From: Candidatus Paceibacter sp.
GTDB taxonomy: Bacteria; Patescibacteriota; Patescibacteriia; DYGC01
Length of the DNA stretch: 40,262 bases
Direction of reading: 5' to 3'
Assembly (NCBI GenBank): GCA_020724925.1
Contig: DYGC01000003.1
Coordinates: 1-40,262, forward strand
Shown here: positions 1 through 33,679 of the stretch, piece after piece
How the letters are laid out: the number at the start of each line of letters is the position of its first letter
Position numbering within the stretch: position 1 is the stretch's first letter
Position numbers and translations under genes: made by a program
Notes under the pieces: model-generated
Told to the model about the DNA's origin: nothing
Databases searched by the model: none
Seen by the model: only the letters and a program-made list of their open reading frames with translations

Positions 1-684
1 TCCGACGAAGCTTGTTCCAGTGTTAATTTAGGATGTTTGCCTGATTCAACCGAGCCTTGCCAATATGCTTTTGTTGATACCAATACCGGTGATGCCTTTG
101 CTTCCGCCCCTTTGTTTATTGATCCTAGTGATTATCGGATTAATTTTTACGAAGAATCTTCCAGCCGTTTATCTTTTGTGACCGAAGCGGAAATGATTTT
201 TAGTCGTAGCAGTGCCGGAGGCGATGAGGAAGATTTGTGCTCATCTGATAATGCGTTGGATGATAGTTCTACTGCAATCGATACTAGTGGTATTACTTTT
301 GGTCAAGTTAATAAATTAAAGGATAAGGAAAAAGGTAATGCTAAGGATAATGGTTGGGGGCAAACCAAGCATGCTGAAAATGTTTGGACTGAATATTCTT
401 GGGCACAGGGAAAATTATTAAATAAGATGCGTATTTGGTCCCATTTTGCCAATGGCGCCGAAGCGATTAAAGATTTTCAAATTATTGCTTCCAATAATCG
501 GGTTGATTGGGTGACCTTGTATACCGGGGTTCATCCGGGGGAATTACAAAATGAGTTTGTTGATTATTTTTTTCCAAATAATACTGCTTATAAATATTAT
601 CGTTTAGTGGTTAGCAGTAATTATCCCGGTGATGGTGGTGATGACGTTGGTTTGGATGAAGTGGAAATGTCTTGTCAAAATTAA
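1..684 (+). CDS. C-terminal part of a protein ending in an F5/8 type C (discoidin)-like domain; 5'-truncated by the window
   Basis: Frame 1 is open from base 1 (SDEACSSVNLGCLPDSTEPC...). The C-terminal pattern W.EY...KMRIW...IKDFQIIASNN..DW...YKYYRLVVSSN...GLDEVEM resembles discoidin/galactose-binding domains. Confidence 0.6.
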   Translation, partial: SDEACSSVNLGCLPDSTEPCQYAFVDTNTGDAFASAPLFIDPSDYRINFYEESSSRLSFVTEAEMIFSRSSAGGDEEDLCSSDNALDDSSTAIDTSGITFGQVNKLKDKEKGNAKDNGWGQTKHAENVWTEYSWAQGKLLNKMRIWSHFANGAEAIKDFQIIASNNRVDWVTLYTGVHPGELQNEFVDYFFPNNTAYKYYRLVVSSNYPGDGGDDVGLDEVEMSCQN

Positions 685-711: not shown

Positions 712-1122
712 ATGGCAAAAAGCAAAAAAAGTCAGTCATTTCCGTCTAAAAAGAAATTTTTTGACGTCGATGCTAATCTTTTCATTAAATTGGTTTTAGT
801 GATTGTGATTAGCAGTTTGTTTCTAATTGCGATTTTATCAATTATTAATAAGGTTTGGGAAAGAGATTCCCAATTGATGCCGGTAAATTCCAACATGGCT
901 GATTATTTGATTGAGAAAAGAATTCCTGACACTAATGAACCATTACCGCTGGAAGAAAATGAAGAGCCAATTATGTGTACCATGGAATATATGCCGGTTT
1001 GTGCATGGAAAAGCGATGGGATTTGTACAGGCGTTGAGGATTGTCCTCATCAAACTTATGGAAACCGTTGCGTGGCCGGAGCAGAGAAAGCCAACATTAT
1101 CAGTGAGGGTGAGTGTGAATAA
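712..1122 (+). CDS. Single-pass membrane protein with C-terminal Kazal-like Cys domain
   Basis: Basic N-terminus, hydrophobic LFIKLVLVIVISSLFLIAILSII, then CTMEYMPVC...QTYGNRC...GEC, matching the Kazal pattern CxxxYxPVC...TYxNxC. Confidence 0.65.
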   Translation: MAKSKKSQSFPSKKKFFDVDANLFIKLVLVIVISSLFLIAILSIINKVWERDSQLMPVNSNMADYLIEKRIPDTNEPLPLEENEEPIMCTMEYMPVCAWKSDGICTGVEDCPHQTYGNRCVAGAEKANIISEGECE

Positions 1123-1132: not shown

Positions 1133-2188
1133 ATGACGATTGATTCTGGCATAAATCGAGGATTGGACTTAAAAGCTGGAGAAGGACATTTTCAGGAACA
1201 GCTTATTGATTTGAAAAAATTGGTTTTTCCGCAAGATTTCACAAAAGCTTTGGAAGTTTTGCGTTATCGTGTGCCAGCGGAACATTATTATCAGTTATGG
1301 GGTGAAGGAAATCATAACAATGATTTAGCTTTGGGGAAATTTTTTCAGCAAGTCAGTGCGTTATTATGGAATTTACGTCGATATTTGCAAAATCATCAAA
1401 AATTGGAGGAGTATAGTTATAACTTGAATTATCAAAAGGCTGATGAAAATAATACCTTTTTGAAAGATGTCTTGACGCAAAATCAGGAGTTATCAAAAAT
1501 TTTTGATAAAATTTCTTTGTTTGGTAGTGACGATTTGATCGCCGGTACAGCCGAGCGTTTGAAAAAAATTGCTTTTGAGGATCGGGATTATGAGCGGTTT
1601 TTTATTATAAGAATTAATGATTTACTTCGTTTGTGCCAATGGTTTTTGTGCGAGAATTGGAAAAAATTGTATTATTTAAATCTAAAGGAAAAAGGGCAGG
1701 ATGCTACAAGTACTTGGGTAGAACCGGTTTTTAAAGAATTTTCCAGTCCTTATGTTTTGTCAAAAAACGCTTTGTATTTACGAGAAAAGATTCTTGGCCA
1801 ATATGAATATAAATCAGCGTTTTCCGTGACTGATTTGGCGATTGCTGAGCATCCTTTTTATTTTTTGGGATATGAACAGTCTAAACATCAGGATTTATTA
1901 AAAGCAGCCGAAGCAAGTGTTCAATCTAATGGTAATAATAATGGTTTTTCTTTGAATCGTTACGCCGCGGCTTATGGTGAGGATAATTTAAAGTGGACGA
2001 TTCAAGAATTAAAACCCCATTTCGAGCAAGTGGATAATTTGAATATGGAGCAAGTGGGGGCGTTGCAAGAATTGTCGGATTTGTTAGCGGATTATCAATT
2101 GGGATCTTATCCGTTATTGGATTTGCAGGTTTATGATTTGGTGAGAGATAAAATTAGAAAAGTTTTTGATATTAAATTTTGGGTATGA
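1133..2188 (+). CDS. Hypothetical protein (351 aa, probably helical)
   Basis: Long ORF with ATG start; its stop overlaps the next start (ATGA, 2185-2188). No recognisable motif. Confidence 0.75.
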   Translation: MTIDSGINRGLDLKAGEGHFQEQLIDLKKLVFPQDFTKALEVLRYRVPAEHYYQLWGEGNHNNDLALGKFFQQVSALLWNLRRYLQNHQKLEEYSYNLNYQKADENNTFLKDVLTQNQELSKIFDKISLFGSDDLIAGTAERLKKIAFEDRDYERFFIIRINDLLRLCQWFLCENWKKLYYLNLKEKGQDATSTWVEPVFKEFSSPYVLSKNALYLREKILGQYEYKSAFSVTDLAIAEHPFYFLGYEQSKHQDLLKAAEASVQSNGNNNGFSLNRYAAAYGEDNLKWTIQELKPHFEQVDNLNMEQVGALQELSDLLADYQLGSYPLLDLQVYDLVRDKIRKVFDIKFWV

Positions 2189-4314
2189 GTTTAGAAACAG
2201 CTTTACAAACAACAAAGCCAGCTGAAATAACCCCTCCGCCCGAAGAAAATATTTCGGAACTTGTTTTGTCTACTCTACCTCAAGAAAAAGAAAAGCCCAG
2301 TGGGGTGGCTGATTTAAGTTTTAATCGAGAAAGAGTCATTAATACTAAAGCACCGGAATTGCCATCACGGGCGGAAAATGCTCCTGATTTTCGTAAGGAA
2401 TTAGAGGAGAGTATGTTGGAACGTGGTGGGCGCTCTTTATCATCACATGATTTGGCAGAACGTTTAGGAAATTTACAAAATCCGGATGATTTGAAAAAGA
2501 TTTTGGGGGAATTGAACCCAGCGGGCAGACCGGAAAATGCACAAACTGCCCTGAGTTTTTTGGAGAGTCGTGGTTTAGTAAAAGTTTTATTTGATTTAAA
2601 ACCGGGGGATCGGGTCTTTTCTTTTTTAACTCCCAGCGATGAGGCGACTTCTGTGAAAATTTTAAATCAAAATATTGGTCCTAATAAAAATGACAGTTTT
2701 ATCATTGCCAGAAAAGAACTATTTAGGAAAAATCTGTCCATGTATTTAACAGAATTGGATCAGGATTATAAACAGGGAGTTTTTAAATTGCGCGATGATT
2801 TGAGTGAGGAAAAGATTAAGGAATTTGAGACGCAGTTACCGGTTATTTTAAAAAAAATTAATCAGGAATTATTAACTTGGTTGAATGACCCCAAACATGG
2901 TAATTATAATGCAGCTAAGTCTTATAATATTACCTATGGTTCATATCAGGTTCCGGAAAATAATAATCCCGCTATTAGTGAACCGGTTAATAATTTATTG
3001 AGTGTTCAAAAATCTTTACAATTGGCCCAATTAAATCGAGGAATGGAATTATCAGCAGCTAATAAAGAATTTTCCCCGGAAATTTTTAATGAACATTTAG
3101 GCAAATTGGCTAATTTAAAAGGTGAGTTGCAAGGTTTTGCTTCAATTACTGATAAAAATGGTGATACTTATCAGATTTTTGGGGCGGATGGCCAGTTGAA
3201 TCGAGATTTGATTCGTTTGCATCGTAAAAATGGTTTAAAGGTTGATGAGGGTGATGCCAATAAAGTTTTGATTAAGGAGAAAATATCCGAATATATTAAA
3301 GCTATTAACTTTATTGATTTTTTTAAACCATACGCCCTTGATGAATTATCTCCTAAAGCAGAAAGCCCGGGAAAATTTGAAGAATTGCAGGCTCGACATA
3401 ATTTGGCACAAAAAATTAAAGCTTATCAAAATGGTGATACCAATGTGAAATTTGATGCAGCGGAGGTAGCGTTATTGGGGCAGTCGATTAACAAGGAAAA
3501 TAAAGATGCCAATTTCGATTCTGAAGTGCAGTTCGTCAGTAAATCTTTAGCCATTGATAATTGTACTTATTTATCAATGGATATCGTTGATGTCGGCGTC
3601 GATCAGTTATTGTCTTACGAGAATATGGTTAATGATTTTCAAGCTAATCGTTTTGACAGCAAAAAGAGTCAGACCTTTGATTCGGAAAGGGTTTTGGCGT
3701 CAGTCGGTGACGAAGTAACGAAAAGGTTGCGAGAAGTTAGAGCGAAACTGAAAGAAGTTTTTACTAAACGTGGTTTGGGTGATGTTAATTTTTTGGTCGG
3801 TGGTGATGAATTTACTATTAGTTTGCCAAGTGATAAGGTAAGCGATGAATTGTTATTTGATTTAAGAATAGCTGCCAAATCGTTTAATGGGGCACGCTTG
3901 GTGAAAACGGATCGGGTGACTGCTTCGGGTACTGATTTGAAAACCAGACAATTAGAGCATGCTCGCGCTTTGATTCAATCCGAACAGGGGATAGAAGAAT
4001 CAAAATTATTGGAAAAAAGAATTGCTAATTTTAAACAAAGTTTAGTAACTAAATTATTAGGGGAAAAGGGAGATTTAGAGCAAAAACTTGGGAAAAACCT
4101 TAAGGATTCTGAAATATCTGACCTTGTTCAACGTTCTATTGATGATAGTGGAATTGACAATTTTATCATTGTTCAGGAGGCGGATGGGGATATCGTTAAG
4201 TGGCCGGCCGGAATCAAATTTTCCGGAGCTTCGGCCGAGGAATTGTTAGATGATTGGGAAGCGAAAACCCGAGCGTCTCTAAGTGATGAGGAATATTTAA
4301 GAAATAATTTATAA
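2185..4314 (+). CDS. Hypothetical protein with two GGDEF/Cas10-palm-like modules (first degenerate, second with DIVDVG and GGDEF)
   Basis: ATG at 2185 overlaps the upstream stop. Motifs: KILNQNIGPNKND (2656-2694), DIVDVG (3580-3597, in YLSMDIVDVG) and GGDEF (3799-3813, in FLVGGDEFTI). Confidence 0.55.
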   Translation: MSLETALQTTKPAEITPPPEENISELVLSTLPQEKEKPSGVADLSFNRERVINTKAPELPSRAENAPDFRKELEESMLERGGRSLSSHDLAERLGNLQNPDDLKKILGELNPAGRPENAQTALSFLESRGLVKVLFDLKPGDRVFSFLTPSDEATSVKILNQNIGPNKNDSFIIARKELFRKNLSMYLTELDQDYKQGVFKLRDDLSEEKIKEFETQLPVILKKINQELLTWLNDPKHGNYNAAKSYNITYGSYQVPENNNPAISEPVNNLLSVQKSLQLAQLNRGMELSAANKEFSPEIFNEHLGKLANLKGELQGFASITDKNGDTYQIFGADGQLNRDLIRLHRKNGLKVDEGDANKVLIKEKISEYIKAINFIDFFKPYALDELSPKAESPGKFEELQARHNLAQKIKAYQNGDTNVKFDAAEVALLGQSINKENKDANFDSEVQFVSKSLAIDNCTYLSMDIVDVGVDQLLSYENMVNDFQANRFDSKKSQTFDSERVLASVGDEVTKRLREVRAKLKEVFTKRGLGDVNFLVGGDEFTISLPSDKVSDELLFDLRIAAKSFNGARLVKTDRVTASGTDLKTRQLEHARALIQSEQGIEESKLLEKRIANFKQSLVTKLLGEKGDLEQKLGKNLKDSEISDLVQRSIDDSGIDNFIIVQEADGDIVKWPAGIKFSGASAEELLDDWEAKTRASLSDEEYLRNNL

Positions 4315-4318: not shown

Positions 4319-5260
4319 ATGAGAAAAATTTTAGTAATTGTCTCTTTGGCGTTATTTTTTGGCGCGGTATCATTTTTGGCCTTTTATAATATTGCCAACC
4401 ATGATGAAAGTTTAAAAGATTTTCCGCGTGATATTATTCAAGAAAACAAAATTCCCGGCGGGGAGCCAATAATTGAGGAAGAACCGTCCAATGTTGGTGA
4501 TGAAACTCCGGAAGAAGAGTTCGTTCCCGGTAACTCTGAGAATTTACCGGATTCATCTTTTGAAAATGAGAATATTAAAGTGACGCAAAGGGAAATTATT
4601 GCAGATGAAAATGCTTTATTTGTCAGTGGTGAAGCTAGAACCTTTGAATCTATCGTTAATTTTAAATTATTTGATTCCAACGGAAATTTAATTGTGGAAG
4701 ATTCAACCATGGCCAACACTCACGTGGAAGGCGTTTGGGGACGGTTTTCCAAAGTTATTAATTTTGCTGCTCCTAGCACGGTGCGTGGTACTTTGCAAGT
4801 TTTTCAATACTCGGCCGTAGATTTGCAAGAAATTGATAAAATCATGGTTCCGGTTTATTTTCAATATAATGATCAAATGGAAGTTAAGGTTTATTTCAAT
4901 CATAATGCCAAAGCCGGTATGCCGGATGAATGCAGTTACACGCGAGTGGCTTCTCGTTATATGGCTAGAACCACGGGCGTGGCGCGCGCCGCCTTAACCG
5001 CTTTATTGCAAGGTCCGACCAATGATGAAAAGAATAATGGTTATTTTTCCAATATTCCGGTTGGTACCACTTTGAATAGCATTAGAATTGAAAATGGTAC
5101 CGCTTACGCTGATTTCAGCGAAGAGTTGAATAATACCGGCGGAAGTTGCGCCGTTGGTGGAATTTACGCTTCCATCAGTGATACTTTAAAACAATTTTCC
5201 ACCGTGCAAAATGTGGTGATTTCTGTCAATGGGCGAACTGAGGATATTTTGCAACCCTAA
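4319..5260 (+). CDS. Membrane-anchored protein with Gmad2 Ig-like and GerMN domains
   Basis: N-terminal TM segment. VSGEARTFESIVNFKLFDSNG is Gmad2-like. AALTALLQGPT...GTTLNSIRIENGTAYADFS...LKQFSTVQNVVISVNG is GerMN-like. Confidence 0.8.
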   Translation: MRKILVIVSLALFFGAVSFLAFYNIANHDESLKDFPRDIIQENKIPGGEPIIEEEPSNVGDETPEEEFVPGNSENLPDSSFENENIKVTQREIIADENALFVSGEARTFESIVNFKLFDSNGNLIVEDSTMANTHVEGVWGRFSKVINFAAPSTVRGTLQVFQYSAVDLQEIDKIMVPVYFQYNDQMEVKVYFNHNAKAGMPDECSYTRVASRYMARTTGVARAALTALLQGPTNDEKNNGYFSNIPVGTTLNSIRIENGTAYADFSEELNNTGGSCAVGGIYASISDTLKQFSTVQNVVISVNGRTEDILQP

Positions 5261-5277
5261 GGCATAAATTGGTGGAA

Positions 5278-5409
5278 AAGGGCGAATTGTCATTCGCCCC
5301 TACACAAGAGACGCAAGGCATAATTTTACAAAAACAATGGATTTTGTGTGACAAAAAAATATTCGTGAATATAAATCTCTCCCGTAGGGGCGAATGACAA
5401 TTCGCCCTT
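5278..5409. repeat. Inverted pair of GTAG-tagged REP-like palindromes
   Basis: 5384-5409 GTAGGGGCGAATGACAATTCGCCCTT is the exact reverse complement of 5278-5303; 80-bp spacer; each unit has an internal GGGCGAAT/ATTCGCCC hairpin. Confidence 0.85.
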
Positions 5410-5592
5410 AGAGATTGCACAATTTCAGCGCACAATTATTCGCAAATTCTAACCTCCCCGAGCTAATGGGTGGCAAAAATTTCGGGATAATTCGGCAACG
5501 GTTTATAATAATAAAAATTATTGGAAATACAAATACAAAATTTTCCAGGATGACAAATTCTCATGACATAATTGGCTACAAATAAAAAAATC

Positions 5593-5620
5593 TTGCTTTC
5601 TTTTTGTAACGGTTTATAAT
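5593..5620 (+). promoter_or_regulatory. Putative sigma70 promoter
   Basis: TTGCTT-16 bp-TATAAT, 27 bp upstream of the ATG at 5648. Confidence 0.5.
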
Positions 5621-5647
5621 AAAAATTAATAAATCATAAAAATACAT

Positions 5648-6988
5648 ATGAAAAACTCAAGATTTTTTATACTGATTGCGTTTTTGATAACAATAGCCTG
5701 GCCGGCAATGGGCCGGGCTGTTTCATTTTCGGCACAATATCTGGAAAACACCCGCGTTCGTAGCAGCCCGGAAGTTTTAGCCGATAATATTATGATGACT
5801 TTACCGGCCGGTAGCCTGGTGCAGGTTTTGGGTGAAAGCGGCTTATGGTATAACGTGGAATTGAAAACCGGCCAAATCGGTTGGTCAATGAAAGAATTTT
5901 TGAGCGCGACCGATAATCAATCATCAACCGAAACTGTTACGCCCACCGCGACCGCCGCTCCTGCTACGGGCTTATTGGGGCGCGTGACCGGTCGTTTATT
6001 GTTACAAGTTCAACAGCAAGGGCAAATTTGGTATGTGGATGTGCCTTCACAAAAAAGATATTTGGTCACCAAAGAGCAGGCTTTGCCGTTGTTTCGGGCT
6101 TTGTCTTTGGGCATCAGCAATAATGATTTGAGTAAAATTTTCCAGTGTGACGGTCAAGTTAAGCCGGCCAATGATTTAAGTAATCGTTTGAGTGGTCGTT
6201 TATTGTTGGCAGTGGAGGATTTAGGTCGGGTTTGGTATGTTTATCCGCCGCAAAATTGTCGTTACGAGGTTAGAACCGATAATATAATGGATTTGTTCCG
6301 TTCCTTGTCTTTGGGAATCACTGATGGCGATTTAAACGCGATTCCGATGGCCAGCGTGGTGGGCGGGTCTGGTTCCACCGCACCGAGCGGCAGCACTGCA
6401 AGCGCGAGTTCCAGTTCTAGTGCAACTTCCAGTCTTTCCGGTACGTTAACTAGTAGTCAATCAACGAATATTACAGATATCAATCAACCGCCGAGCCTTA
6501 ATTTGGCTGAGGTGGAAGCTTATTGGCTGCAGGAAGTAAATGCTTTGCGTTCAGCGGCTGGTTTGCGAACTTTAGTTAGTAATAAGTATTTACGAGCGAC
6601 CGCGCAAGAATGGGCGGTTTATATGGGACGTGATTTGGGCTATTGTACTCATGATCGGCCGGATGGCTCCAGTATGCACAAATGGATTGATACTAAAAAC
6701 ATTCCTTGGACGGTTCGTTATTCGGTTGGTGGCTGGAATACCAATTATTTCACGGAAAATATTGCTTACGGTTATACCAATGGAGCTTTAGCCAGTACAC
6801 AGAAAATGTTGGATGGTACTTTAAAATGGATTTTGGATGAAGCCAGCTATAATGGCCCGCATTACCGCACAATTTATCATCCGGATTGGAATTCCGTGGG
6901 AACAGGCTTTTATTTTCAAAAAGTCAGCGAGAATAATTATAAGATTTTTATTGCTTGGCATTACGGTAGTGTTGATTTAGGGAAGTAG
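5648..6988 (+). CDS. Secreted protein: SH3b-like domain, two 'GRLLLxV..G..WYV' repeats, Ser/Thr linker, CAP (SCP) domain
   Basis: Signal peptide; SH3b-like RVRSSP...GSLVQVLGESGLWYNV...GW; two ~50-aa repeats; CAP motifs NALRSAAGL, HDRPDGS, ENIAYG, HYRTI...SVGTG. Confidence 0.8.
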   Translation: MKNSRFFILIAFLITIAWPAMGRAVSFSAQYLENTRVRSSPEVLADNIMMTLPAGSLVQVLGESGLWYNVELKTGQIGWSMKEFLSATDNQSSTETVTPTATAAPATGLLGRVTGRLLLQVQQQGQIWYVDVPSQKRYLVTKEQALPLFRALSLGISNNDLSKIFQCDGQVKPANDLSNRLSGRLLLAVEDLGRVWYVYPPQNCRYEVRTDNIMDLFRSLSLGITDGDLNAIPMASVVGGSGSTAPSGSTASASSSSSATSSLSGTLTSSQSTNITDINQPPSLNLAEVEAYWLQEVNALRSAAGLRTLVSNKYLRATAQEWAVYMGRDLGYCTHDRPDGSSMHKWIDTKNIPWTVRYSVGGWNTNYFTENIAYGYTNGALASTQKMLDGTLKWILDEASYNGPHYRTIYHPDWNSVGTGFYFQKVSENNYKIFIAWHYGSVDLGK

Positions 6989-10368: not shown

Positions 10369-13362
10369 ATGCAAACCTACGCTGAATCATTGGAAAACCT
10401 CAATCCCGAGCAACGCCGCGCCGTGGAGTGCGTTGATAAACATTTGTTGATCGTGGCCGGCGCGGGGACGGGAAAAACGCAATTGGTGACCACCAAGATC
10501 GCTCATTTTTTAATGAATGATTTGGCGCGTGCCAACCAAATTCTGGCCTTGGCTTTCAATGATGATGCCGCCGACGAAATGGAGGCGCGAGTAATGGGTT
10601 ATTTGCCTTTGAGTTACGCCACCGATGATTTTTGGATTAAAACTTTTCACGCTTTTGGTGAAAGAATTTTGCGGGAAAACGCTTTTGAAGTTGGTTTGGG
10701 CAATGATTTTAAAGTTTTAAATAAAACCGAGCAATATTTATTGGTTTATCGCAACTGGTCGCGCTTTAAAGTTCGTCACATTGAGAAAAAAGGCAGCACC
10801 ATCACCTTGGTTAAAGCTTTGGTGGATTTTTTCCAGGATTGCAAACGGGAATTGATTACACCGGAAGATTATTGGCAGTGGACCGAAGATTGGCGTTTGA
10901 ATAAAGATCTGGCCAAGTTTTACAAACAAAATTTTAATCTGAATTATGATGAGGACGAGGCGCCCACCATGTCCGAAATTAAGGAAACGTATGAAGATCA
11001 CCGCGAACGCGCCGAAGCCTACGCTTTGTATCAAAAAATTCTTTTGGAAAATAATGCCATTGATTTCAGTGATATGTTGTTTCACGCTTATTTTTTGTTA
11101 AAAGATAAACCGTTGATTCGTCGTAAATATCAGGAGCAGTTTAAATATATTATCGTCGATGAATTTCAGGATACGGATTTTTTGCAATATGAATTGGTAA
11201 AAATGTTGTTGTCCGGCAAGAATCATTTGACCGTGGTGGGTGATGATGATCAATCTATTTATCGTTTTAGAGGAGCGTCCATTTATAATATTTTGCAATT
11301 TAAGGAAGATTTTCCGGAAGCGGAAGAAGTATTTTTGACCACCAATTATCGGAGCGGGCAAGAAGTTTTGGATTTGTCCTATCAATCCATTCAATATAAT
11401 AATCCGGAGCGTTTGGAAGTTAAATTGAATAACAGCAAGCGTTTACTTTCCAAGGAAAAGAAACATTCCAATGTCGAAGTTGCCGGTTTTAACACTGACG
11501 CCGATGAAATGGAATTCTTGATCAAACAAATTGTTCAGTTGTCCAAAGAACAAGAAGATTTTCAATGGAAGGACGTGGCGGTGCTCGCTCGCACTCACGC
11601 CGCCCTGGATACGGCCGCTAAAGCCTTGGAAGAAGCGGGCGTTCCTTATTGTTTGTATTCCGCCAAGGGTTTGTATAATAAAAACGCAGTTTTGGATGTT
11701 TTGAATTATTTGAAATTATTGGATGATTATCATGAAAGCACGGCGATGTTCCGTGTTTTATCATTGAGTATTTTTGATTTGCCGCGCGAGGACATCATCA
11801 AATTGAATCATTATTCCAAACAAAATCAGATTTCCTTGTGGGAAACTTGCAAACAAGCGGCGACTTTACCTTTAAATGACGGCAGTTTGGAAAAAATCAG
11901 CAAGATTTTACATTTGATTGAAAAACACAGTGCTCAAGTTAAAGATAAGAGTGTCGGACAAATCATTTTGAATTTTTTAACCGATAGCGATTATTTGAAA
12001 GATTTGTTGCGTGAAGAAAACGAACAAACCAAAGAGAGCTTGAAACATTTGCAAACCTTGTTTGAGAAAATCAAAAAGTTTGAGAGCAGTACTTTGGATG
12101 CCAGTTTGCCGGTTTTTATCGCCAATTTGCAGTTGGAATTGGATTTGGGCGAGAGCGGCGATTTGGGCATTGATTTTGATTTGGGACCGGACGTCGTTTC
12201 TTTGTTGACGGCCCATGGTTCCAAAGGTTTGGAATTTAAACATGTTTTTGTGATTAATTTGGTCAATGACAGTTTCCCCGGATCCAATCGTGATCGTGGT
12301 GGTTTGGATTTGCCTGACAGTTTGGTTAAAGAAAAAAGCAAGGATGAAAGTCATTATACCAAAAAGGAATTGCATTTGATGGAGGAGCGCCGTCTGTTTT
12401 ACGTGGCTTGCACGCGCGCCAAGGAATCATTATTTTTGACTTATTCCATTAAGCAAAGAAATTTAAAAAGAGATAAAAAACCGTCGGCGTTTTTGAGCGA
12501 ATTGGAATTGGATAAGGGTGATTTGCAAGATTTTGGTAAAGATTCTCTGAGCTTTTGGAAAACTTATGGCGCCGCCGATCGTTGGATGGCGGAAATCAAG
12601 CCCGGTGCCGAGCCGGTTTCGGCGTTGCCGACGCGTTATTCTTTCAGTAAATTGAAAACTTATTCCGAATGTCCTTATAAATACAAATTGCAACACATTT
12701 TGCGCGTGCCCACCAAACCGGCCGCGTCCTTGAGTTTTGGTCAAGCGATTCATCAAACTTTTGAAGCTTTTTGTAAAACTTTGATGGCCGGCGGACAAGT
12801 CAGTAAAAAGTTTTTATTGTCTTTGTTTGATAAATCCTGGGCGGCCAATGGCACCGGTTATGAATCTCCCCAACAAAAAGAGGAATATCATGAAAAAGGT
12901 TTGCAAATTATGGAAATGTTTTGGAACGATTATGAGAGCAATCATCCGAATGTTAAAGAAGTGGAAAAGCAAATCAATTGGAAATGGTCGGAAAAAGTCG
13001 CTTTGGAAGCGCGGCTGGACCGTTTGGATGTTTTGCCGGATGGAGCGTGGCGCGTGGTGGATTACAAAACCGGACGCGGTAAACAAAAAATCGATGATAG
13101 TTACAAGAAACAGTTGGTTTTATACGCTAAAGCGATGCAAGCACAGTATGGCGTTTTGCCCGCGGAAATCAAATTGATTTACGTGGAAGATTGGTTAGTA
13201 CACAATGTCAAAGTGACCGAAAAGGAAATCACGTCTTTGGATAAATGGGTGCAGGAAATTTTGGATGGAATCGCCGAGATGGATTATTCGCCCAATCCCA
13301 GCGAATTTAATTGCCAGTATTGTCCTTATCGTGATATTTGCGAATATAAAAAAGACACTTAA
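10369..13362 (+). CDS. UvrD/PcrA-type SF1 helicase fused to a C-terminal PD-(D/E)XK nuclease with four Cys (AddB/AdnB/Cas4-like Fe-S staple)
   Basis: AGAGTGKT, VDEFQDT, VGDDDQSIYRFRGA, NYRS, TAHGSKGLEF, EERRLFYVACTRA; then SFSKLKTYSECP, RLDRLD...VVDYKTG, QLVLYA, CQYCPYRDIC. Confidence 0.92.
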   Translation: MQTYAESLENLNPEQRRAVECVDKHLLIVAGAGTGKTQLVTTKIAHFLMNDLARANQILALAFNDDAADEMEARVMGYLPLSYATDDFWIKTFHAFGERILRENAFEVGLGNDFKVLNKTEQYLLVYRNWSRFKVRHIEKKGSTITLVKALVDFFQDCKRELITPEDYWQWTEDWRLNKDLAKFYKQNFNLNYDEDEAPTMSEIKETYEDHRERAEAYALYQKILLENNAIDFSDMLFHAYFLLKDKPLIRRKYQEQFKYIIVDEFQDTDFLQYELVKMLLSGKNHLTVVGDDDQSIYRFRGASIYNILQFKEDFPEAEEVFLTTNYRSGQEVLDLSYQSIQYNNPERLEVKLNNSKRLLSKEKKHSNVEVAGFNTDADEMEFLIKQIVQLSKEQEDFQWKDVAVLARTHAALDTAAKALEEAGVPYCLYSAKGLYNKNAVLDVLNYLKLLDDYHESTAMFRVLSLSIFDLPREDIIKLNHYSKQNQISLWETCKQAATLPLNDGSLEKISKILHLIEKHSAQVKDKSVGQIILNFLTDSDYLKDLLREENEQTKESLKHLQTLFEKIKKFESSTLDASLPVFIANLQLELDLGESGDLGIDFDLGPDVVSLLTAHGSKGLEFKHVFVINLVNDSFPGSNRDRGGLDLPDSLVKEKSKDESHYTKKELHLMEERRLFYVACTRAKESLFLTYSIKQRNLKRDKKPSAFLSELELDKGDLQDFGKDSLSFWKTYGAADRWMAEIKPGAEPVSALPTRYSFSKLKTYSECPYKYKLQHILRVPTKPAASLSFGQAIHQTFEAFCKTLMAGGQVSKKFLLSLFDKSWAANGTGYESPQQKEEYHEKGLQIMEMFWNDYESNHPNVKEVEKQINWKWSEKVALEARLDRLDVLPDGAWRVVDYKTGRGKQKIDDSYKKQLVLYAKAMQAQYGVLPAEIKLIYVEDWLVHNVKVTEKEITSLDKWVQEILDGIAEMDYSPNPSEFNCQYCPYRDICEYKKDT

Positions 13363-19754: not shown

Positions 19755-22700
19755 ATGTTCAGTGTTAAATTTAAAACAAAAAATAAGTCCAGAGGGCTTA
19801 TTTTTATTTTAGTGGTTTTTATCAGTACTTTATTTCAACCGTTAATTACTCAGGCTGTCGAGCTTTCCACCAAAGAAATTGCTACATTGACTACGGACTC
19901 AAAAATTTTGGAAAGTCCTGTTGCCAGTTCTTCCACCGAATTACGAAATGGCGAGTTCAATACTTTACAGCCGCATTTGATCAGTGGTGAGTGGCAAAAC
20001 CAATTTTTAATTGGGGAAAACGCCCCCAGCCCGGAAAGTGCCAAAGATAAAATGCAAACCGATTTATATTCCGGAGCGGCCACTTATAACTATGATTTTA
20101 ATTTCCCGGCTGGACGTAATGGTTTGGGACCGGCTTTATCTTTAGTTTATAATAGTCAGAATTTGCAAAACACCTCTGCCTTCGGTTATGGTTGGGACTT
20201 ATCAGGGTTACTCAGCATCCAACGCAACTTATCAGACGGGGTTGATGTTTTGTATTCAAATAAACGATTTGTTTTTTCCGGTGGCGGTGATTTGGTGCCG
20301 GTCGCTTTAACTGATGATGTTCATGGCGAATATTTATTAAACATTGATAATGGTGATTATTTAAGGTTTTTTTATTATCTCAACAATTCCTGGAAAATCG
20401 TTGATAAACAAGGAATTAGTTATTTTTTGGGGGCCAGTGCTGATAGTAAGGAGTCAGGAACTTCCGGGGTAGCCATTTGGAAAATCAATAAAATTCAGGA
20501 TAAAAGTGGTAATTTTGTGGTTTTCACTTATGATAATCAAAATGGTGTCGCTTGGCCCAGTAAGATTACTTATACTCACTATGCTACAGAAACGCCATTG
20601 TATGAAATTCGTTTTTCCTATGCCAGTCGGAATAATTATCAGGAACATTACCGTTTGGGTTTTAAACAATTATTTGACCGTAAAATCAAAAATATTCAGT
20701 TGTTCGTGGGGGGCGTGATGCATCGTGATTTTCAATTTGTTTTGCAGGAAGAAGCCTCAACCTTATTATTAACTTCGATTGGTAGACGAGCTTTTAATTC
20801 TGTTAACTCGACTTGGGAAAGTTTAATTCCGACTACTTTTGAGTATAATTTACCGGTCGCTAATAATTGGCAAATGCAAAATTACGGACAAGTAGATTTT
20901 TCTTTGGATTATTATAATGGTTTAGAGGTTTTTGACTTAAACAGTGATGGTTATGATGACGTGGCGATTGCCAATGATTTTGTTTATGATTCAGGCACAA
21001 TCCAGAATGAAAGAAAAAGTTTTTTAAATAACAAAAGCAATGGTTTTTCTGCCAACAACAGTGCCTGGTATTTACCCGTACCCTTATTTAATAAGCGACA
21101 AAATGATTATAGCTTTTTTACTGATTATCATGTTTTTGATTTGAATGGTGATTCCTATCCGGACGTAGCAAAAAACAATAGTGTTTATTTATTTAATAAA
21201 AATACCCAACGTTGGGACGTTAATAGTAATTATCATTGGTTTGACTATTGGCTTTATGATAATAATGTGGCGATTGAAACCGCTGGCAATCAAGATTTTA
21301 ATGGGGATGGTTTGCCGGATTATATCCATTTTTTGAACAAACGTGTTTATTTGAACAAATGGGCCAGTAATCAAAATAATTTAATTTATGGTTGGACCAG
21401 TTTACCGGTAACTATTTTACAAAGTGATTATCGCAATAAAGGATGGAAATTGATGGATATAAATGGCGATGGTTTGGGGGATATGATTAAGGCGCAAGAA
21501 ACCACTTACAATAATAGTGGTGAAAAAGGAGTTTACGTTAATAAAGGCGATGGGCAATGGTTGCCGGAGATGACGCGGTGGTTGTCACCATTATATTTTT
21601 GTCGACAAAGTACCTTGTTAGGTAATTGTTTGGATCAGAAGGTTTTGATTTTGGATATTAACAATGATGGTCTAGGTGATTTCTTGGATTCAACCGGTAA
21701 TTTTTATATTAATAATGGTCATACTTGGGTTTGGGATACGCGTTGGACATTACCGATTTCCTTGGTGGCCAATAATCAGTGGACGACTTTTCGTTTTGCT
21801 GAAGTTAACGGCGTTCCTGGCGTTGATTTGTTAAAGAGTGATGGTCCCTTAAGTAATAATTTATACTCTTTAAATGTTTATCGTAATCCCAGTCCCCATA
21901 TTTATTTATTAAATAAAGTTAAAAACGAAAATTACGGAGAAATTAATATTGAATATGAAGGATCTGCCAAGTTTAATAATAATCAAGGACCAAGTTTTAG
22001 TGTGGTAAAACGAGTCAGTGTTAATGATGGTTTTGGGCAAACACAGGTTGAGGATTATTCTTACGAAGGATCTTTTTATTACTTTGACACTATCTGGCAA
22101 CGTTGGCGAAGTGGTTTTGGTAAAATTGAAAAAAGCCTGGCGGGCAATCGTCAAGAAAAATACTATTTTCATCAGGGAAACGGCGATAATTATCCTTTTG
22201 AAATAAATGATCAACCGCAAAAAAGAGGAAAGTTATATTATTGGGAGGTTTGGGATAATAATACTCCCTTGCGAGCTAATTTGAATGTTTGGCAAGCCAC
22301 TGAAGGACCACTTAAGCATTATTTGCTTTTATCGGTTAAAGATTTTATTTTCTATTTTGATAATTCTTATCCTAATCCTAGTAGCATTATTTTGTTAAGT
22401 AAAACCTATAATTCTCTAACTGGAAATTTAACCCAAAGTGTTGATTGGGGGGCTGTGACTTATCAAAATCGCCATGAATTTACTGATTTGCGTCCGGATG
22501 ATAATCGTTTTGAGTATTTCACTTACGCTCTCGATAAGAGTAATGAACTGCGAGCGGCAGTGAGTAGCCGAAAAGTGATGAATAGTAGTAATCAAATTTT
22601 ATTACAAGAAAATTTCGAATATGACAATTTGGTTTTTGGACAAGTTTCTAAAGGATTACTTAGTAAGCACTCCCTATTAAATAGTAATAATATCTGGATT

Positions 22701-25700
22701 ACCGAATCTTTTTCTTATAATGCTTATGGCTTAAATAGCAAATTTACCGATTATAATGGTAACGTCCATACTTATTTGTATGATAGCTATAATTATTTTC
22801 CGGCCAAAATTACCAATCCTCTGGGGCATATTCAAGAAAATAAATATAATTATAATTGTGGGATTTTAAGTGAGCAGAAATTGGCCAATGGGGGAATAGA
22901 ATTTGATCTTTATGATGGTTTTTGTCGTTTAAAGCAAAAAGGCCGTAAATATTCTAACCAAACGGAAATAATTCAGGAATTGGTTTATGATCAAAATTTT
23001 CCGATGTCTGTTTATCAAAAAGATTATTTATCTGCTGGCGTTTATGGTGAAAGCAGGACTTATTATGATGGACTGGGAAGAACAATCTTAAAATTTAAAA
23101 AGCAAGATCAAAATTTATGGTCCGGAATTGCTTTTCAGTATAATGATCGTGGTTATTTGTTTAAACAATCACTGCCTTTTGCCAGTGGCCAGGGACTTTG
23201 GCCTGCGGGCAGTGTTAGCGGTTGGGAAGTTTATAATTATGACGCCTTAAATCGTTTGGTCAGCTGGAGTAATGAACAAGAAAATGTTTCAATTGCGTAT
23301 AGTTCTTTTGATAAACGTTCTTTGTATTTAAATGGACAATTGTGGGGAAATTATCAGTTTGATACCCGTAATAATTTAGTAAAAATAACTTTAAATAATG
23401 GTCAATTATTTCAGTACGATTATGATTTATTGGGGCGTTTGTTAAAAATGACCGATTCTAAAAATAATATTCGTCGTTTTACTTATGATTTGTTAGGTCA
23501 GCCTTTAATTCAGGAGGATTGGCACCAAAATAATGATGTTAATTTTGGTATCTGGAGGTATAAATGGGATGCCAATGGAAATTTATTAGAGAAAACCGAG
23601 CCCAGTGGAATTAAAATATTATATCAATATGATCGTTTAAATCGTTTGATTCAAGAGGATGATTTGGGCACGATTAATTTGGATTATCAGTATTTATATG
23701 ATGGTTCCACCTTTGGTATTGGCAATTTAACCGGTATTAAGAATCGAGATTTTTCCATTGATTATACTTATGATTGGCGTTCATTTCTAATTGGTGAAAG
23801 TTATGCCATTAGTAATTTTTTATACACATATAATTATGCTCGTAATTATCTTGGTCAGCCAACCGTGATAATTTACCCTGATAAAAGCAGTTTGGAGTAT
23901 GCTTATAATAATCAAGGATCTTTACTAAAAGCTAATTATATTAACGATAATGTCAGTAAACCGATTATTAAAAATCGTACTTATAATCAATTTGGAGCAG
24001 TGGATTCAGAAGCCTTGGGCAATGAAAGCGTTCGTCAGTTTGAATATGATAAATATGGAACTATAACGTCCGAAAGCGTGGAAAAGAACAATCAAGTTTT
24101 ATGGAAACAAGATTATACTTATGATCAATTTAAGAATTTACAATCATTGAGAATTTCCGGTGCTTTTTTGCCGACTTATCAATCTTTATTTACTTATGAT
24201 AGCAGTAATCGTCTGCGTTCTTATAATGTTTATAATAGCCAAAACCAAAGTGTTGCTAATGGAACATTTACTTACAATGATTTAAACGCATTGGTCACGG
24301 GTGATCAAAAGAATTATCAATACGAAGCAAATTTAGCCAGTTATACTAATCAATACGCTCCAATCGCCAATACCGGAGCGGGAAAAAATTGGCAAGGGGA
24401 ATATGATTTGTCCGGTAATTTGAGCAAATTGGGCCCTTATGAATTATTTTGGGATGCCAATCACCGCTTACGTGTTTTAAATTATGATAATGGTCAAAAA
24501 ACTAAGTATTATTATTATTTACCGGATGGCCAGCGTTTTATGACCCTTCGTGATAATGGCACAAAGCAAATTTGGGTTAATAATTATTACAAAGATGACG
24601 CTTTAGACATGGAAGAATTTATTTATGGACCATTGTGGCGTCAAAAAATCAATGATGATGAGTTTTTCTATTATCAATATTACGACAAATTCAATAATTT
24701 ATCTTTGGTTTTAGATGAAAATGCTAATTTGGAAAATTATTTTATTTATAAACCGAACGGCGAAATTATTGTACAAGCACAACAACAGGATTCAGGACAT
24801 TTTTATCACCAACAATGGCGTGACGCACAGGAAGAAAATTTAGATTACAAGGGGTCTCGTTATTATTCTGTTGATTGGCAACATTATTTGTCACCGGATC
24901 CGGTACACTATGATTTTTCATTGTTATCGTGGGAGGAGCAACAGCAAGTCTTGGTTAATCCGATTCGCTTGAATCCTTATATTTATTTAGCCCATAATCC
25001 TTACCAAAACGATGATAGTACCAATGCCATTTGGGAAACCGCTTTTGACTTAGTGTCTTTTGCTTTTAGTATTAAGGAATTTATGAATAATCCAACGTGG
25101 TTGAATGGTTTAGCGGCCACTTGGGATTTAGCGTCGGTTTTGGTGCCATTTGTGCCGGCGGTGGGTCAGGGTTTGAATAAACTAACACAAGCGATGTTGA
25201 CCAAGTGGTCTAATTTGAGTGCTAAATATCAAAATGAAATTAAAAAGACTGCCCAATATTTAAATAAAAAAGCTTCAGATGTCTGGCGCTTGATGCAAAA
25301 ACAACTGGGAAAAATTGATTCAAAAATGGGGAGAATTATTAATAAATATTGGCGTAAAGGGAAATTTGCTAGCTCGGAAATTAATTTTGTTGAACATTAT
25401 GTTAAACATCGTGGGGAGTTAGGGAAGTTTAATATCAATTCCATGGAAGATTATTTGAATTTTTCATCTAATTTTATCAATGTCACCGGAGATAAAATTA
25501 TTACTGAGTGGGGGCAATTCTATCGATTGGTTGATAACCAGGGGGCTAATTTATTCTTTAATCCACACAATAAATTAATGGTAGTGCTTGATTCTGATGC
25601 TAAAGGGCAGTTTATTCGTAGTGCTTATGAGGTGGAAGCTGGTAATAAATTAAATTGGTTGATGGGGTCGGTTTTGGGAAGAGCAATTTATTGGTTGTTT

Positions 25701-27681: not shown

Positions 27682-28815
27682 ATGTTCGCTTTTTGGCCGT
27701 TTTCAAACAATAAAAAGCAAAATCATCAATTAACGGAATATTGGCAAGCCATTGAAAAAATTGAGAAACGTTATTTGGAATTGACGGGAAAATTATTGGT
27801 TTCACAGCCAAAATGTTTAAATTTAAACAGCGAAAAGAAAAAATTTTTGGAAAAATACAAGGCCGGTGAAGTTTATAATCCGCAACTTCTTTTCAAAAAA
27901 AAACAATTTGACGGACGTAGTGTTTTGGCACTGCAACGTTTTTATGAAAGCATCACTTTAAAGGATGATTTTTTTTATTTCAAACAACTTTACAAAGAAA
28001 AAATCAAAAATTTATTATTGATGATTGATGCCTATCGGCAGTGGGGCGAGCCGGCTTCCACCAAGTTTATTATCAAGGCCAAAGGCCGTCCTTCTTGGTT
28101 TTTGTTTTGGCAAGCCAAAAGATTTTGTGCCAATTATCATGGCCATCGTTTAAAATACAAGCGAAAAATGACACCGCAGGAAGTCGGAATGGCATTGTTA
28201 AAATATGTTAAAGAAATTAGTGGCGAAACCCTGTCCGTGGTTTATAGTCGATATTTGGCCAGCAAAGCGATTATTTATCCTAAAAAACATTTATTAAAGA
28301 TTAATAGTAAAGCTAGTTTTAATGATGCAGAGCTGGAAAGATTGAAAGTTCATGAGATTGGTGTGCATTTTACCCGTTATCACAATGCCAAAAAGCTGGG
28401 ACGCCTGATTTTGGAAATCGGCGCAGCCAATTATTTGGAAACGGAAGAAGGTTTGGCGGTTTATAATGAAGAAAAACAGGGGGTTTTGAAAAGCTCACAA
28501 ATGTTTGTCTATGCCGGACGGGTAGTGGCGGCGTATTATGCCTTGCGTTGCAGTTTTTACAAGGTTTTTAAGATTTTGCGGGGCTATGGGTTTAGTCAAA
28601 AAGAAGCTTTTGAAATCACTTTTAGAGCCAAACGTAATTTAGCCGATACTTCTTTAGCTGGTGCTTACACTAAAGATTTCGTTTATTTTAGCGGCTATCA
28701 AAAGGTTAAAAAGTATGCCAAACAGCATCGTGCCAAGGTTAATGATTTGTTTTTTGGAAAATTCGCGTTGGCGGATTTGCCAAAACTGGAAAAATACTTA
28801 AAATATAAGGAATAA
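27682..28815 (+). CDS. DUF1704-family (MATCAP-like) metallocarboxypeptidase
   Basis: HEIGVH (HExxxH), TEEGLA, RAKR, YTKDFVYFSGY, LFFGK. Confidence 0.85.
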   Translation: MFAFWPFSNNKKQNHQLTEYWQAIEKIEKRYLELTGKLLVSQPKCLNLNSEKKKFLEKYKAGEVYNPQLLFKKKQFDGRSVLALQRFYESITLKDDFFYFKQLYKEKIKNLLLMIDAYRQWGEPASTKFIIKAKGRPSWFLFWQAKRFCANYHGHRLKYKRKMTPQEVGMALLKYVKEISGETLSVVYSRYLASKAIIYPKKHLLKINSKASFNDAELERLKVHEIGVHFTRYHNAKKLGRLILEIGAANYLETEEGLAVYNEEKQGVLKSSQMFVYAGRVVAAYYALRCSFYKVFKILRGYGFSQKEAFEITFRAKRNLADTSLAGAYTKDFVYFSGYQKVKKYAKQHRAKVNDLFFGKFALADLPKLEKYLKYKE

Positions 28816-32496: not shown

Positions 32497-32529
32497 AAAA
32501 AACCCCCAGAGTAGTTTTTTAACTGGGGG
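32497..32529 (-). terminator. Intrinsic terminator for the minus-strand HExxH gene
   Basis: On -, stem CCCCCAG/CTGGGGG with a 13-nt loop, followed by T6, just past the stop at 32538. Confidence 0.6.
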
Positions 32530-32537
32530 ACTGAAAA

Positions 32538-33485: not shown

Positions 33486-33504
33486 TATAAAACTCCTTTT
33501 TATT

Positions 33505-33551
33505 GTAAAAGTACTTTTACTAAAATTAAAACAATTATCATATTTTGTCAA
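33505..33551 (-). promoter_or_regulatory. Promoter with a downstream perfect 16-bp palindrome (possible operator)
   Basis: On -, TTGACA (33551-33546)-17 bp-TAATTT; palindrome GTAAAAGTACTTTTAC at 33505-33520. Confidence 0.5.
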
Positions 33552-33644: not shown

Positions 33645-33679
33645 CTAAACGTCAAGGTTTATTCATAAAAACCAATTTT

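Follow-up and report, generated by a model that had tools for sequence, protein, structure and literature searches.

The window considered here, that is, the whole stretch of 40,262 nucleotides (nt) of contig DYGC01000003.1 (positions 1 to 40,262 of the forward strand) in the Candidatus Paceibacter sp. assembly GCA_020724925.1, contains at 2185..4314 a gene for a protein of 709 amino acids (aa), P0001, that is predicted to carry two palm domains in one chain. With a confidence somewhat above even, we regard P0001 as the founder of a family of nucleotidyltransferases, not annotated so far, that have two palms in a single chain; the family belongs to the superfamily of GGDEF domains, class III cyclases and Cas10 and would join two nucleotides at one centre. 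Judged from the predicted fold, the protein probably makes a nucleotide-derived product. This reading is carried by the prediction of two palm folds, the dead one first and the live one second, together with the conservation pattern of the family. The architecture of two palms with one active site has so far been tied to Cas10 and to the eukaryote-type adenylyl cyclases, and here it would appear from GGDEF-like domains and without CRISPR. Moreover, the hosts are bacteria with genomes of 0.7-1.1 Mb, which have room for few genes, and invariant catalytic residues in a family that is not annotated in the libraries point to a nucleotide chemistry not yet assigned.

The 709-aa open frame is obtained by translation of window positions 2185-4311 on the + strand, and residue r starts at nt 2185+3(r-1). 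The longest version of the open reading frame (ORF) opens at TTG 2179, and ATG 2185 overlaps the stop codon (TGA) of the upstream ORF (gtATGA); the close homologues P0004 and P0005 likewise begin with MSLETAL, as from ATG 2185. A first-pass annotation, made from the letters of the window, had described here an ORF with two tandem modules and had quoted a number of peptides from it. This observation is confirmed: YLSMDIVDVG, VGDEVTKRLREV, NFLVGGDEFTISL, ALIQSEQGIEESK, VKILNQNIGPNKNDSFI, YNITYGSYQV and LLSVQKSLQLAQLNRG are all present in the frame, and DIVDVG (D466-G471, 3580-3597), the GGDEF motif (G539-F543, 3799-3813) and the helix K158-D170 of the first module (2656-2694) lie exactly where they had been placed. 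The second module also carries the insert ascribed to it, although this is shorter than the ~40 aa claimed, since D466 and D509 are 43 residues apart and the first Asp and the GD Asp of the GGDEF consensus are 17 apart, which gives ~26 extra residues. Neither a signal peptide nor a transmembrane segment was seen in P0001 when the sequence was read by eye. The full chain was modelled by AlphaFold2 from an alignment of 73 rows, with a mean predicted local distance difference test (pLDDT) of 88.5 and a predicted template modelling score (pTM) of 0.86. The features of the protein are as follows, with the basis of each in brackets.

2185..4314, + strand: ORF of the two-palm protein, P0001, 709 aa (89 homologous clusters)
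2185..2379, + strand: N-terminal ~65 residues, predicted disordered and poorly conserved (pLDDT under 50 at residues 1-49 and 55-62 and nowhere else in the chain; consensus mostly x)
2383..2595, + strand: predicted N-terminal helices, residues 67-137, leading to palm 1 (DSSP of the model)
2602..3039, + strand: palm 1 core, residues ~140-285, predicted degenerate GGDEF/cyclase fold (VIA-align on a model of the N-terminal half)
2656..2694, + strand: palm 1 helix of the nucleotide-binding type, K158..N161..G165....D170 (conservation; weak hhalign pairing)
2761..2772, + strand: tip of the palm 1 beta2-beta3 hairpin, Q193-D194-Y195-K196, at the place of the GGDEF loop (DSSP strands 188-193 and 197-202)
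3076..3504, + strand: central, mostly helical region, residues 298-440 (conservation, DSSP)
3505..4203, + strand: palm 2, residues ~441-673, predicted GGDEF fold with insertions at ~490-508 and ~612-655 (VIA-align, hhalign)
3580..3597, + strand: DIVDVG at the end of palm 2 beta-1, with D466 as candidate metal-binding Asp (conservation; strand 459-467)
3706..3720, + strand: G508-D509-x-x-T512, aligned with GHxxGD of GGDEF domains (conservation, hhalign)
3799..3813, + strand: GGDEF hairpin of palm 2, between strands 535-538 and 542-548 (conservation)
3958..4014, + strand: closing helix H592..E600.G602....K607..E610 (aligned with ADxAMYxAK in a low-confidence global hhalign)
4234..4308, + strand: predicted C-terminal helices, residues 684-708 (DSSP)

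A conserved family with two predicted palms

Homologues of P0001 are numerous. A word-based search gave three close ones, at 96, 95 and 80% identity. A phmmer search of 1.84 billion cluster representatives gave 89 homologous clusters (50% identity) at E up to 1e-3, of which 82 reach 1e-10 or better and 27 reach 1e-30 or better; the proteins are mostly 600-800 aa long. The 73-sequence alignment consists of P0001, P0006 and 71 of the 89 phmmer matches, and the 18 that were left out are P0005 (95% identical) and 17 much longer or shorter forms. Identity to the query is 18-41%, save for one relative at 79%, and six columns are nevertheless invariant (73/73): N161, G252, R347, N375, D378 and D466. 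In palm 2, G539, G540, D541 and E542 are each present in 72 of the 73 sequences, the single miss being the truncated sequence P0089, and D469 (63/73), G471 (72/73), D509 (71/73) and T512 (71/73) are kept as well, as are H592 (67/73), E600 (62/73), K607 (71/73) and E610 (69/73) of the closing helix. The fifth position of the motif is variable (L27, I13, V11, F9 and A7 among the 73) and is thus not kept as Phe, so what marks the family is GGDE with a hydrophobic residue after it; the position before GGDE, Arg in GGDEF enzymes, is V, I or L in 65/73. Among the 17 long or short forms outside the alignment, 14 have GGDE, the full-length P0073 has RGDE and two short pieces do not include the region. 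In palm 1, the helix has the family consensus IKxLNDxxFGxQxTDxII, with K158 in 71/73, N161 in 73/73, G165 in 68/73 and D170 in 61/73 (plus ten Asn), and the hairpin tip is Q in 50/73, D in 39/73, Y or F in 68/73 and K or R in 62/73. The central region, too, is conserved, with F332, N339, K348, Y370, K381 and P382 in addition to its invariant R347, N375 and D378. Judged by sequence comparison, the conservation of these motifs at such identities is far beyond chance, and P0001 belongs to a real, conserved and previously unannotated family.

The libraries are nearly silent on this family. Pfam gave for P0001, at E up to 1, a meaningless CTD7 match (E 0.35) and nothing else, neither PF00990 (GGDEF) nor PF00211, and PF00990 did not match 52 other members at E up to 0.01. 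NCBIfam gave two matches, both far under their cut-offs, and no Cas10 family is among the Pfam or NCBIfam matches of P0001. No PDB sequence was matched by the single sequence, and the best match with the family profile had E 0.95; PADLOC matched 0 of 12 proteins, PHROGs gave nothing for P0001, no relative was found among 244 pattern matches in viral contigs, and BFVD gave no match at E up to 0.001. In the ESM Atlas the top scores were 0.87-0.88, under the lead level of 0.9, with one GGDEF cluster at rank 9. In addition, no description of the two-palm family turned up in the titles and abstract openings of publications.

The predicted structure places two palm domains in the chain, as the first-pass annotation had proposed: palm 1 at ~118-306 and palm 2 at ~430-673. 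By DSSP, the secondary structure fits two beta1-alpha-alpha-beta2-beta3-alpha-beta4-alpha units; in palm 2, D466 closes beta-1 and G539-G540-D541 form the beta2-beta3 turn. Palm 2 was compared by VIA-align with the best 1000 chains of Foldseek, of which the best 50 rows were considered. The first is the diguanylate cyclase DgcZ (4h54_B, Z 13.5, root-mean-square deviation (rmsd) 2.1 Å, 151 residues aligned), so that a palm fold is indeed predicted around the GGDEF motif; 3tvk is matched at Z 13.0 (152 aligned of a target length of 172). All of these best 50 are GGDEF domains (Z 11.5-13.5), mostly of diguanylate cyclases and including the degenerate ones of LapD, FimX and DosP, and none is a Cas10 palm.

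For palm 1, residues 66-436 were folded separately (pLDDT 93.2, pTM 0.89) and compared by VIA-align with ~48,000 PDB representatives without a Foldseek prefilter; the best 50 rows were again considered. The N-half model gave no match at E up to 0.001 in Foldseek alone. By VIA-align, the closest chains include the adenylyl cyclase Rv1625c (7yzi_A, Z 10.9, rmsd 3.1 Å, 133 aligned), the GGDEF domain 3hvw (Z 10.8, 153 aligned of a target length of 159), GTP cyclohydrolase III (Z 10.3) and mCpol (Z 10.1, 115 aligned of a target length of 119), with Cmr2 at Z 8.7-9.0. The best 50 (Z 10.9 to 8.2) comprise 48 cyclase, GGDEF, Cas10, mCpol or GTP cyclohydrolase III chains, one hypothetical protein and one Rev1 palm. 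The chain is therefore predicted to be more than one canonical GGDEF domain, since a second cyclase/GGDEF fold stands in it. Because palm 1 filled the match list, the fold of the central region (298-440) was barely probed. The proposal that the first module is degenerate and yet keeps its K..N...G....D helix, and that the second keeps the beta-1 Asp and GGDE, holds well against the conservation given above: palm 1 has no beta-1 Asp, its beta-1 (RVFSFL) being followed by TP, and no catalytic loop, the turn D194-Y195-K196 within the conserved Q193-K196 putting QDYK in the place of GGDEF, whereas in palm 2 both Asp residues, D466 and D541, are conserved in the homologues.

When the whole chain is compared with the PDB by Foldseek, the top ranks are two-palm proteins. 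Cmr2/Cas10 comes first (4h4k_C, E 6.7e-5, probability 0.99, 628 columns), with six more Cas10 chains at E up to 1e-3; 3w2w_A, 4doz and 4w8y are also among the Cas10 entries. Human soluble adenylyl cyclase (E 1.2e-3, 516 columns) and then the adenylyl cyclase AC9 follow.

Palm 2 can also be linked to GGDEF domains by sequence profiles. A profile was built on 28 canonical GGDEF domains, chosen from 30 loci in Patescibacteria genomes; hhalign aligned palm 2 with it over 39 columns (probability 86%, E 4.9e-6) and paired AGDxxT...VGGDELTLA of the family with GHxxGD...RxGGDEF. A global hhalign of low confidence further pairs AExGxxxAK607 with ADxAMYxAK; being unreliable through the insert region, it was not used for placing D466. 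Moreover, the family profile cross-matches two canonical GGDEF genes (G138:C3:39487-39954, E 3.4e-5, and G115:C101:3326-3742, E 9.1e-4) at the same places that PF00990 matches. These cross-matches support homology, and they also show that low-scoring genome matches of the family profile are not members. Of the two residues that specify guanine in GGDEF enzymes, which we take to be N335 and D344 of PleD, palm 2 keeps the aligned Asp (D509), while the position eight after D466 is not conserved; palm 1 keeps both the Asn and the Asp (N161 and D170), within a weak alignment to GGDEF.

Possible reactions and comparison with known enzymes

In the mechanism that we propose, palm 2 (~441-673) would be the catalytic half, with D466, the GGDE hairpin, D509 and K607 of the closing helix. 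It would bind the donor nucleoside triphosphate and two metals through D466 and D541/E542, and D509 and K607 may contact the base and the phosphates. Palm 1, as modelled, cannot catalyse, because it has no beta-1 Asp and has the QDYK hairpin in place of GGDEF. Since its K..N...G....D helix is kept as strictly as the catalytic residues of palm 2, palm 1 most likely holds a second nucleotide, which might be the acceptor or an allosteric ligand, bound through N161/D170 without being activated. Cas10 consists of a degenerate Palm1 and a GGDD Palm2. If P0001 works as Cas10 and the C1/C2 cyclases do, it would have one catalytic centre, at which two purine nucleotides, GTP probably among them, would be linked, with one phosphodiester bond made per binding event. 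The product may be linear, or it may be a cyclic di- or oligonucleotide if the intermediate re-binds, as it does in Cas10 or in cGAS; guanine nucleotides would be favoured by the Asn and Asp that are kept. That the palms face each other and form one shared active site we infer from these analogues, and it stays an inference because P0001 gives no rigid superposition on Cas10 or soluble adenylyl cyclase and neither of them is in the best 50 by Z when the whole model is compared.

Several points weigh against the proposed two-palm synthase. The whole-chain superpositions on Cas10 and soluble adenylyl cyclase are poor (template modelling score (TM) 0.12-0.29, rmsd 15-40 Å), and no two-palm chain, hence no Cas10, occurs among the best 50 by Z when the whole model is searched by VIA-align; the predicted mutual orientation of the palms therefore appears to differ from that in both analogues, and in the model the likeness to them is one of domain content and order rather than of rigid geometry. 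At the sequence level, the palm 1 helix is paired with FKxINDxxGHxxGDxxL only weakly (hhalign probability 6.5%, E 0.0057), and no similarity is seen between palm 1 and palm 2 (hhalign probability 0.4%). A canonical GGDEF domain binds its GTP entirely by itself, and the idea of complementary halves is the logic of class III cyclases and Cas10 applied to GGDEF-like folds. Furthermore, R347, N375 and D378 of the central region, although invariant, have no role in this model.

Among known proteins, the GGDEF diguanylate cyclases (PF00990; DgcZ 4h54/3tvk, PleD 1w25/2v0n, WspR and the Thermotoga maritima protein TM1788, 4urg) are the nearest to palm 2. Palm 2 is predicted to have the full GGDEF fold (Z 12-13.5, rmsd 2.0-2.6 Å over 135-155 residues) and has the beta-1 Asp, the GD motif, the GGDE hairpin and the closing-helix Lys; palm 1 shares with them its topology, the K.LND..G....D helix, a conserved Gly in beta-4 and the closing helix. 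Unlike these enzymes, however, P0001 lies outside the PF00990 profile, with a profile-profile match that is only partial (39 columns, probability 86%), and has two domains in one chain, the first without the catalytic loop. In palm 2 the ~26 extra residues separate beta-1 from the GD motif, and a second insertion precedes the last strand. The family has neither the Arg before GGDE nor an RxxD site, its fifth motif position is L, I or V, P0001 has no sensor domain, and the conserved central region of 140 residues has no GGDEF counterpart.

This nearness raises the alternative that P0001 is a conventional diguanylate cyclase with a built-in regulator, in which the palms 2 of two chains would pair as in PleD or DgcZ and give cyclic di-GMP (c-di-GMP), palm 1 would sense a nucleotide (GTP or c-di-GMP) or only dimerise, and the protein would replace the missing canonical GGDEF enzymes. 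The structural matches of palm 2, from DgcZ downwards, speak for it, and so does the alignment of D509 with the GD Asp and of N161/D170 of palm 1 with the ND..GH..GD residues, which fits guanine nucleotides, since the ND and GD residues are known for their roles in guanine binding from work on PleD. The signalling inventory of five carrier genomes, namely that of the window (G000) and G058, G110, G196 and G229, the latter four 100% complete, cuts both ways, for this alternative as for the suggestion of the first-pass annotation that the product may not be c-di-GMP. PF00990 matches in 0/5 carriers, as against 113 genomes, among them the unpublished G192, out of 301 in the phylum, and the MshEN domain, a known type of c-di-GMP receptor, occurs in 5/5, over the family cut-off in four, in ATPase-sized frames of ~580 aa. 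However, the absence of GGDEF from five of five is not significant, and the carriers are kin; EAL, PilZ and HD_5 (HD-GYP) are each found in 0/5, so that the classical set for c-di-GMP turnover is missing. Further points against this alternative are that no RxxD inhibitory site occurs at a conserved place upstream of GGDE in the alignment, that the Arg before GGDEF is replaced by V, I or L, that the base-binding Asn position of palm 2 is not conserved (consensus x), and that the palm 1 residues are as invariant as the catalytic ones, which exceeds what degenerate regulatory GGDEF domains usually show. On balance we consider a conventional diguanylate cyclase unlikely.

Degenerate GGDEF folds lead to another alternative, namely that P0001 is a non-catalytic scaffold or a nucleotide receptor. 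Many proteins of this fold are receptors (LapD, FimX and PelD), and LapD and FimX do occur among the structural matches of the two palm searches. Such receptors, however, have degenerate GGDEF motifs, whereas here D466 is invariant and GGDE is all but invariant at 18-41% identity, and a role of this kind is extremely improbable.

Cas10 (Cmr2/Csm1) is closest in layout. P0001 has the same order of a degenerate palm, a helical middle, an active palm with a GGD(D/E) hairpin and a helical C-terminus, Cas10 chains are its top whole-chain matches in Foldseek, and Cmr2 is matched by palm 1. Unlike Cas10, P0001 has no HD domain, its motif is GGDE and not GGDD, it lies outside the Cas10 profiles, the rigid superposition is poor (Foldseek TM 0.12-0.21, rmsd 18-27 Å), and palm 2 is nearer to GGDEF domains than to Cas10 palms. 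The first-pass annotation had seen no sensor domain, cas gene or CRISPR array, which agrees with the results of Pfam, the genes of the window and the carrier searches, although no repeat search for arrays was made. In the window no cas family is among the gene matches, and in the five carriers both Cas1 and Csm1 (TIGR02578) are found in 0/5, so that the Csm1 profile does not match the two-palm gene either. A weak match to Cas_Cas4 (PF01930, E 2.4e-7) was rejected, as it is the PD-(D/E)XK nuclease domain of a UvrD-type helicase-nuclease at 10369-13362.

The pseudo-heterodimeric class III cyclases (soluble adenylyl cyclase, 4cls/4clp; C1/C2 enzymes, AC9) likewise have two palm/cyclase domains per chain, one of which supplies the metal ligands, and they give the top matches of palm 1 (Z 10.9) as well as a whole-chain Foldseek match (E 1.2e-3 over 516 columns). 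P0001 differs from them in having no class III motifs and no PF00211 match, and in TM values of 0.13-0.29. A class III cyclase is present in three of the five carriers, and in the window's assembly it is a canonical PF00211 gene on another contig (G000:C31). The mCpol protein (OptS of the Panoptes defence system, 9mnr/9pd0) is a stand-alone palm of the same superfamily outside CRISPR, and it is reported to make cyclic nucleotides; it consists of one palm of ~120 residues and, in defence islands, works together with a partner effector gene, in contrast to the two fused palms and 709 residues of P0001, which has neither a PADLOC match nor a conserved effector neighbour. In layout P0001 thus resembles Cas10 or a C1/C2 cyclase most, and its catalytic domain comes closest to that of a diguanylate cyclase, but profile tests place it in none of these groups; it represents a new family, whose architecture is a new variant in a known superfamily.

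The match of palm 1 to GTP cyclohydrolase III (Z 10.3) and to the palm of the polymerase Rev1 (Z 8.2) would fit an enzyme that makes no signal and acts instead on the end of a polymer or on one nucleotide, for example by template-independent extension of an RNA or DNA 3'-OH or by a reaction like that of GTP cyclohydrolase III; R347, K348, N375, D378 and K381 of the central region could bind nucleic acid or a triphosphate. These two matches, however, tie with or fall under those to cyclases and GGDEF domains, it is specifically with GGDEF that the GGDE hairpin and the GD motif align, and Pfam gives no nucleic-acid-binding domain, so that we hold such an enzyme to be very unlikely.

To return to the two-palm synthase, a bolder form of it is that the family is a CRISPR-independent, single-chain, Cas10-like synthase in which the dead palm presents the acceptor to the live one and an undescribed nucleotide signal or oligonucleotide is made, and that the module has also been recruited as cargo of injected or polymorphic toxins. 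We put this forward as a speculation that is rather unlikely to hold in full. If it did, the two-palm protein might act on, or report on, the host cell in ultra-small symbionts, and the family could serve as an extant model for the transition between GGDEF-like cyclases and Cas10. In any case, the family bears on the origin of Cas10 from cyclase-like ancestors and on signalling in bacteria of the candidate phyla radiation (CPR) that have no GGDEF, EAL or PilZ, and the protein is an easy target for expression and liquid chromatography-mass spectrometry.

Distribution and genome neighbourhood

The assembly that contains the window has 681,849 bp in 31 contigs and is 80% complete. The family profile matches in 3 of 41 related genomes and in 10 of 401 genomes across the phylum; as two of the ten are the GGDEF cross-matches, there are eight members, and five of the eight member genomes lie among the six genomes of one family (f41). 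When each species was represented by one genome, a scan with an 18-row alignment gave 20 loci, and the taxonomy of the family rests on these 20 genome loci and not on all 89 clusters. They are labelled Magasanikbacteria (8), Uhrbacteria (2), Patescibacteria/Parcubacteria group (3), 'bacterium' (2), 'uncultured Gammaproteobacteria' (4) and Udaeobacter (1). The contig labelled Udaeobacter (L036, DATION010000007.1) has a guanine + cytosine (GC) content of 39% and the gene order of the Magasanikbacteria loci. The four labelled Gammaproteobacteria (L029, L033, L034 and L041) carry a CPR-type gene and most of them also a CPR-type gene order, one contig sharing that of G196:C7, which belongs to the window's own class. 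The Udaeobacter and Gammaproteobacteria labels look like errors of binning or naming, and the two-palm family is found mainly in Patescibacteria (CPR).

No neighbour is conserved universally across 26 loci, but there are three recurrent local arrangements. In the first, seen in ten loci, a helical protein of 108 aa without a family lies directly upstream of the two-palm gene, mostly with a DUF6938 protein of 442 aa and an FkbM methyltransferase further upstream and with FtsX in several; the 108-aa protein could be a clade-specific partner of the two-palm protein. In the second, seen in five loci, the neighbour c12 lies upstream and c22, c8, c13 and c14 lie downstream. The third is that of the window's genus and consists of an F5/8-like protein, a 136-aa protein with a hydrophobic segment and a weak Kazal-like match, P0002, the two-palm protein and a Germane/Gmad2 protein. 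In the window these correspond to five ORFs on the same strand (1..684, 712..1122, 1133..2188, 2185..4314 and 4319..5260), which are packed like an operon. The genes adjoining the two-palm gene, and an example of the first arrangement, are as follows.

1133..2188, + strand: upstream ORF P0002, 351 aa, no family, found only in the window's own genus; its stop overlaps the two-palm start
4319..5260, + strand: downstream ORF with Gmad2 and Germane domains and an N-terminal hydrophobic segment; it starts 4 nt after the two-palm stop
L013:10777-13161, - strand: two-palm gene of the first arrangement; the same order in L014, L016, L017, L027, L033, L034, L036 and L039-L041

The flanks of the gene pair, at 1-1122 and 4319-6988 (+ strand), encode domains that are typical of exported or surface proteins: F5/8 type C-like, Kazal-like (weak), Gmad2/Germane and SH3/CAP. 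For P0002 the ESM Atlas gave nothing, and PHROGs gave nothing for P0002 or the 442-aa protein and only a weak match (E 0.0065) for the 108-aa protein. A complex prediction for P0001 (66-709) with P0002 gave an ipSAE of 0.00 in two runs; as the fold of P0002 is itself uncertain, this is evidence neither way. On comparison, P0002 proved to be unrelated to the DUF6938 protein (442 aa) found in the other clade, and so did the 108-aa neighbour of one clade to the 109-aa neighbour of another.

A fused form and the remainder of the window

The two-palm unit also occurs in a quite different context. P0092, of 2037 aa, has an N-terminal eCIS_core/DUF4157 domain (E 3.6e-34), which marks injected cargo and toxins, and a complete two-palm unit at residues 1423-1983, within its C-terminal ~560 residues (hhalign probability 99.9%, E 5.4e-33, 508 columns), with the motifs KAMNDEMIG, DIKDMG and GGDEI. 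P0092 or its relatives are encoded at ten metagenome loci (L072-L081), and because their contigs have 68% GC these are not CPR. A word-based search for longer fused forms gave none, which is a weak negative since P0092 exists. At one of the loci the genes are arranged as follows.

L073:10001-16111, + strand: P0092-type gene, which carries the two-palm unit
L073:16111-16689, + strand: ORF of 192 aa, no family, which overlaps the stop of the P0092-type gene

This arrangement looks like a toxin-immunity layout, and the toxin-type fusion suggests an activity harmful to the recipient cell, which would be a new kind of effector domain. The family as a whole might accordingly be read as a nucleotide-consuming or signal-making effector against other cells, such as the host of an episymbiont or competitors, instead of a housekeeping second-messenger synthase. 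In support of an effector are the complete unit at the C-terminus of P0092 behind eCIS_core/DUF4157, the overlap of the 192-aa ORF with the stop, as immunity genes often have, and the same-strand neighbours in the window, whose domains would be typical of exported or surface proteins. On the other hand, P0001 itself has no apparent signal peptide or transmembrane segment, no structural or other genes of an extracellular contractile injection system lie within 10 kb of the P0092-type gene in L073, and P0001 has no match in PADLOC or PHROGs and no relative in the viral contigs. Moreover, in the ten CPR loci the gene stands in a stable chromosomal operon near FtsX, the FkbM methyltransferase and the DUF6938 protein, which has a housekeeping look. 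We therefore regard a general effector role as quite unlikely.

The rest of the window is ordinary chromosome, with genes for ClpP, a Xer-type recombinase, a Mur ligase, the UvrD-type helicase-nuclease, tRNA synthetases, MreB/MreC, a transpeptidase-type penicillin-binding protein, RecJ, alanine racemase and GreA; no tRNA and no Rfam family were found in it. Three further observations may be recorded. An ORF of 2005 aa at 19755-25772 (+ strand), with RHS repeats, FG-GAP-like repeats and a TcdB_toxin_midN-like region, is a giant protein of the polymorphic-toxin type, lying between the genes for the penicillin-binding protein and an M23 peptidase in a genome of 0.7 Mb. The ORF at 27682-28815 (+ strand) matches the MATCAP family (PF08014, E 2.2e-35), which is named for the eukaryotic tubulin tyrosine carboxypeptidase, and is thus a bacterial member in a CPR genome. 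Finally, all genes are on the + strand up to 32481 and on the - strand from 32538, the cumulative GC skew peaks near 33-34 kb, and ~1.25 kb at 33552-34804 have no ORF of 120 aa or more; the convergent genes and the GC skew at ~32500-34800 would fit a replication terminus region.

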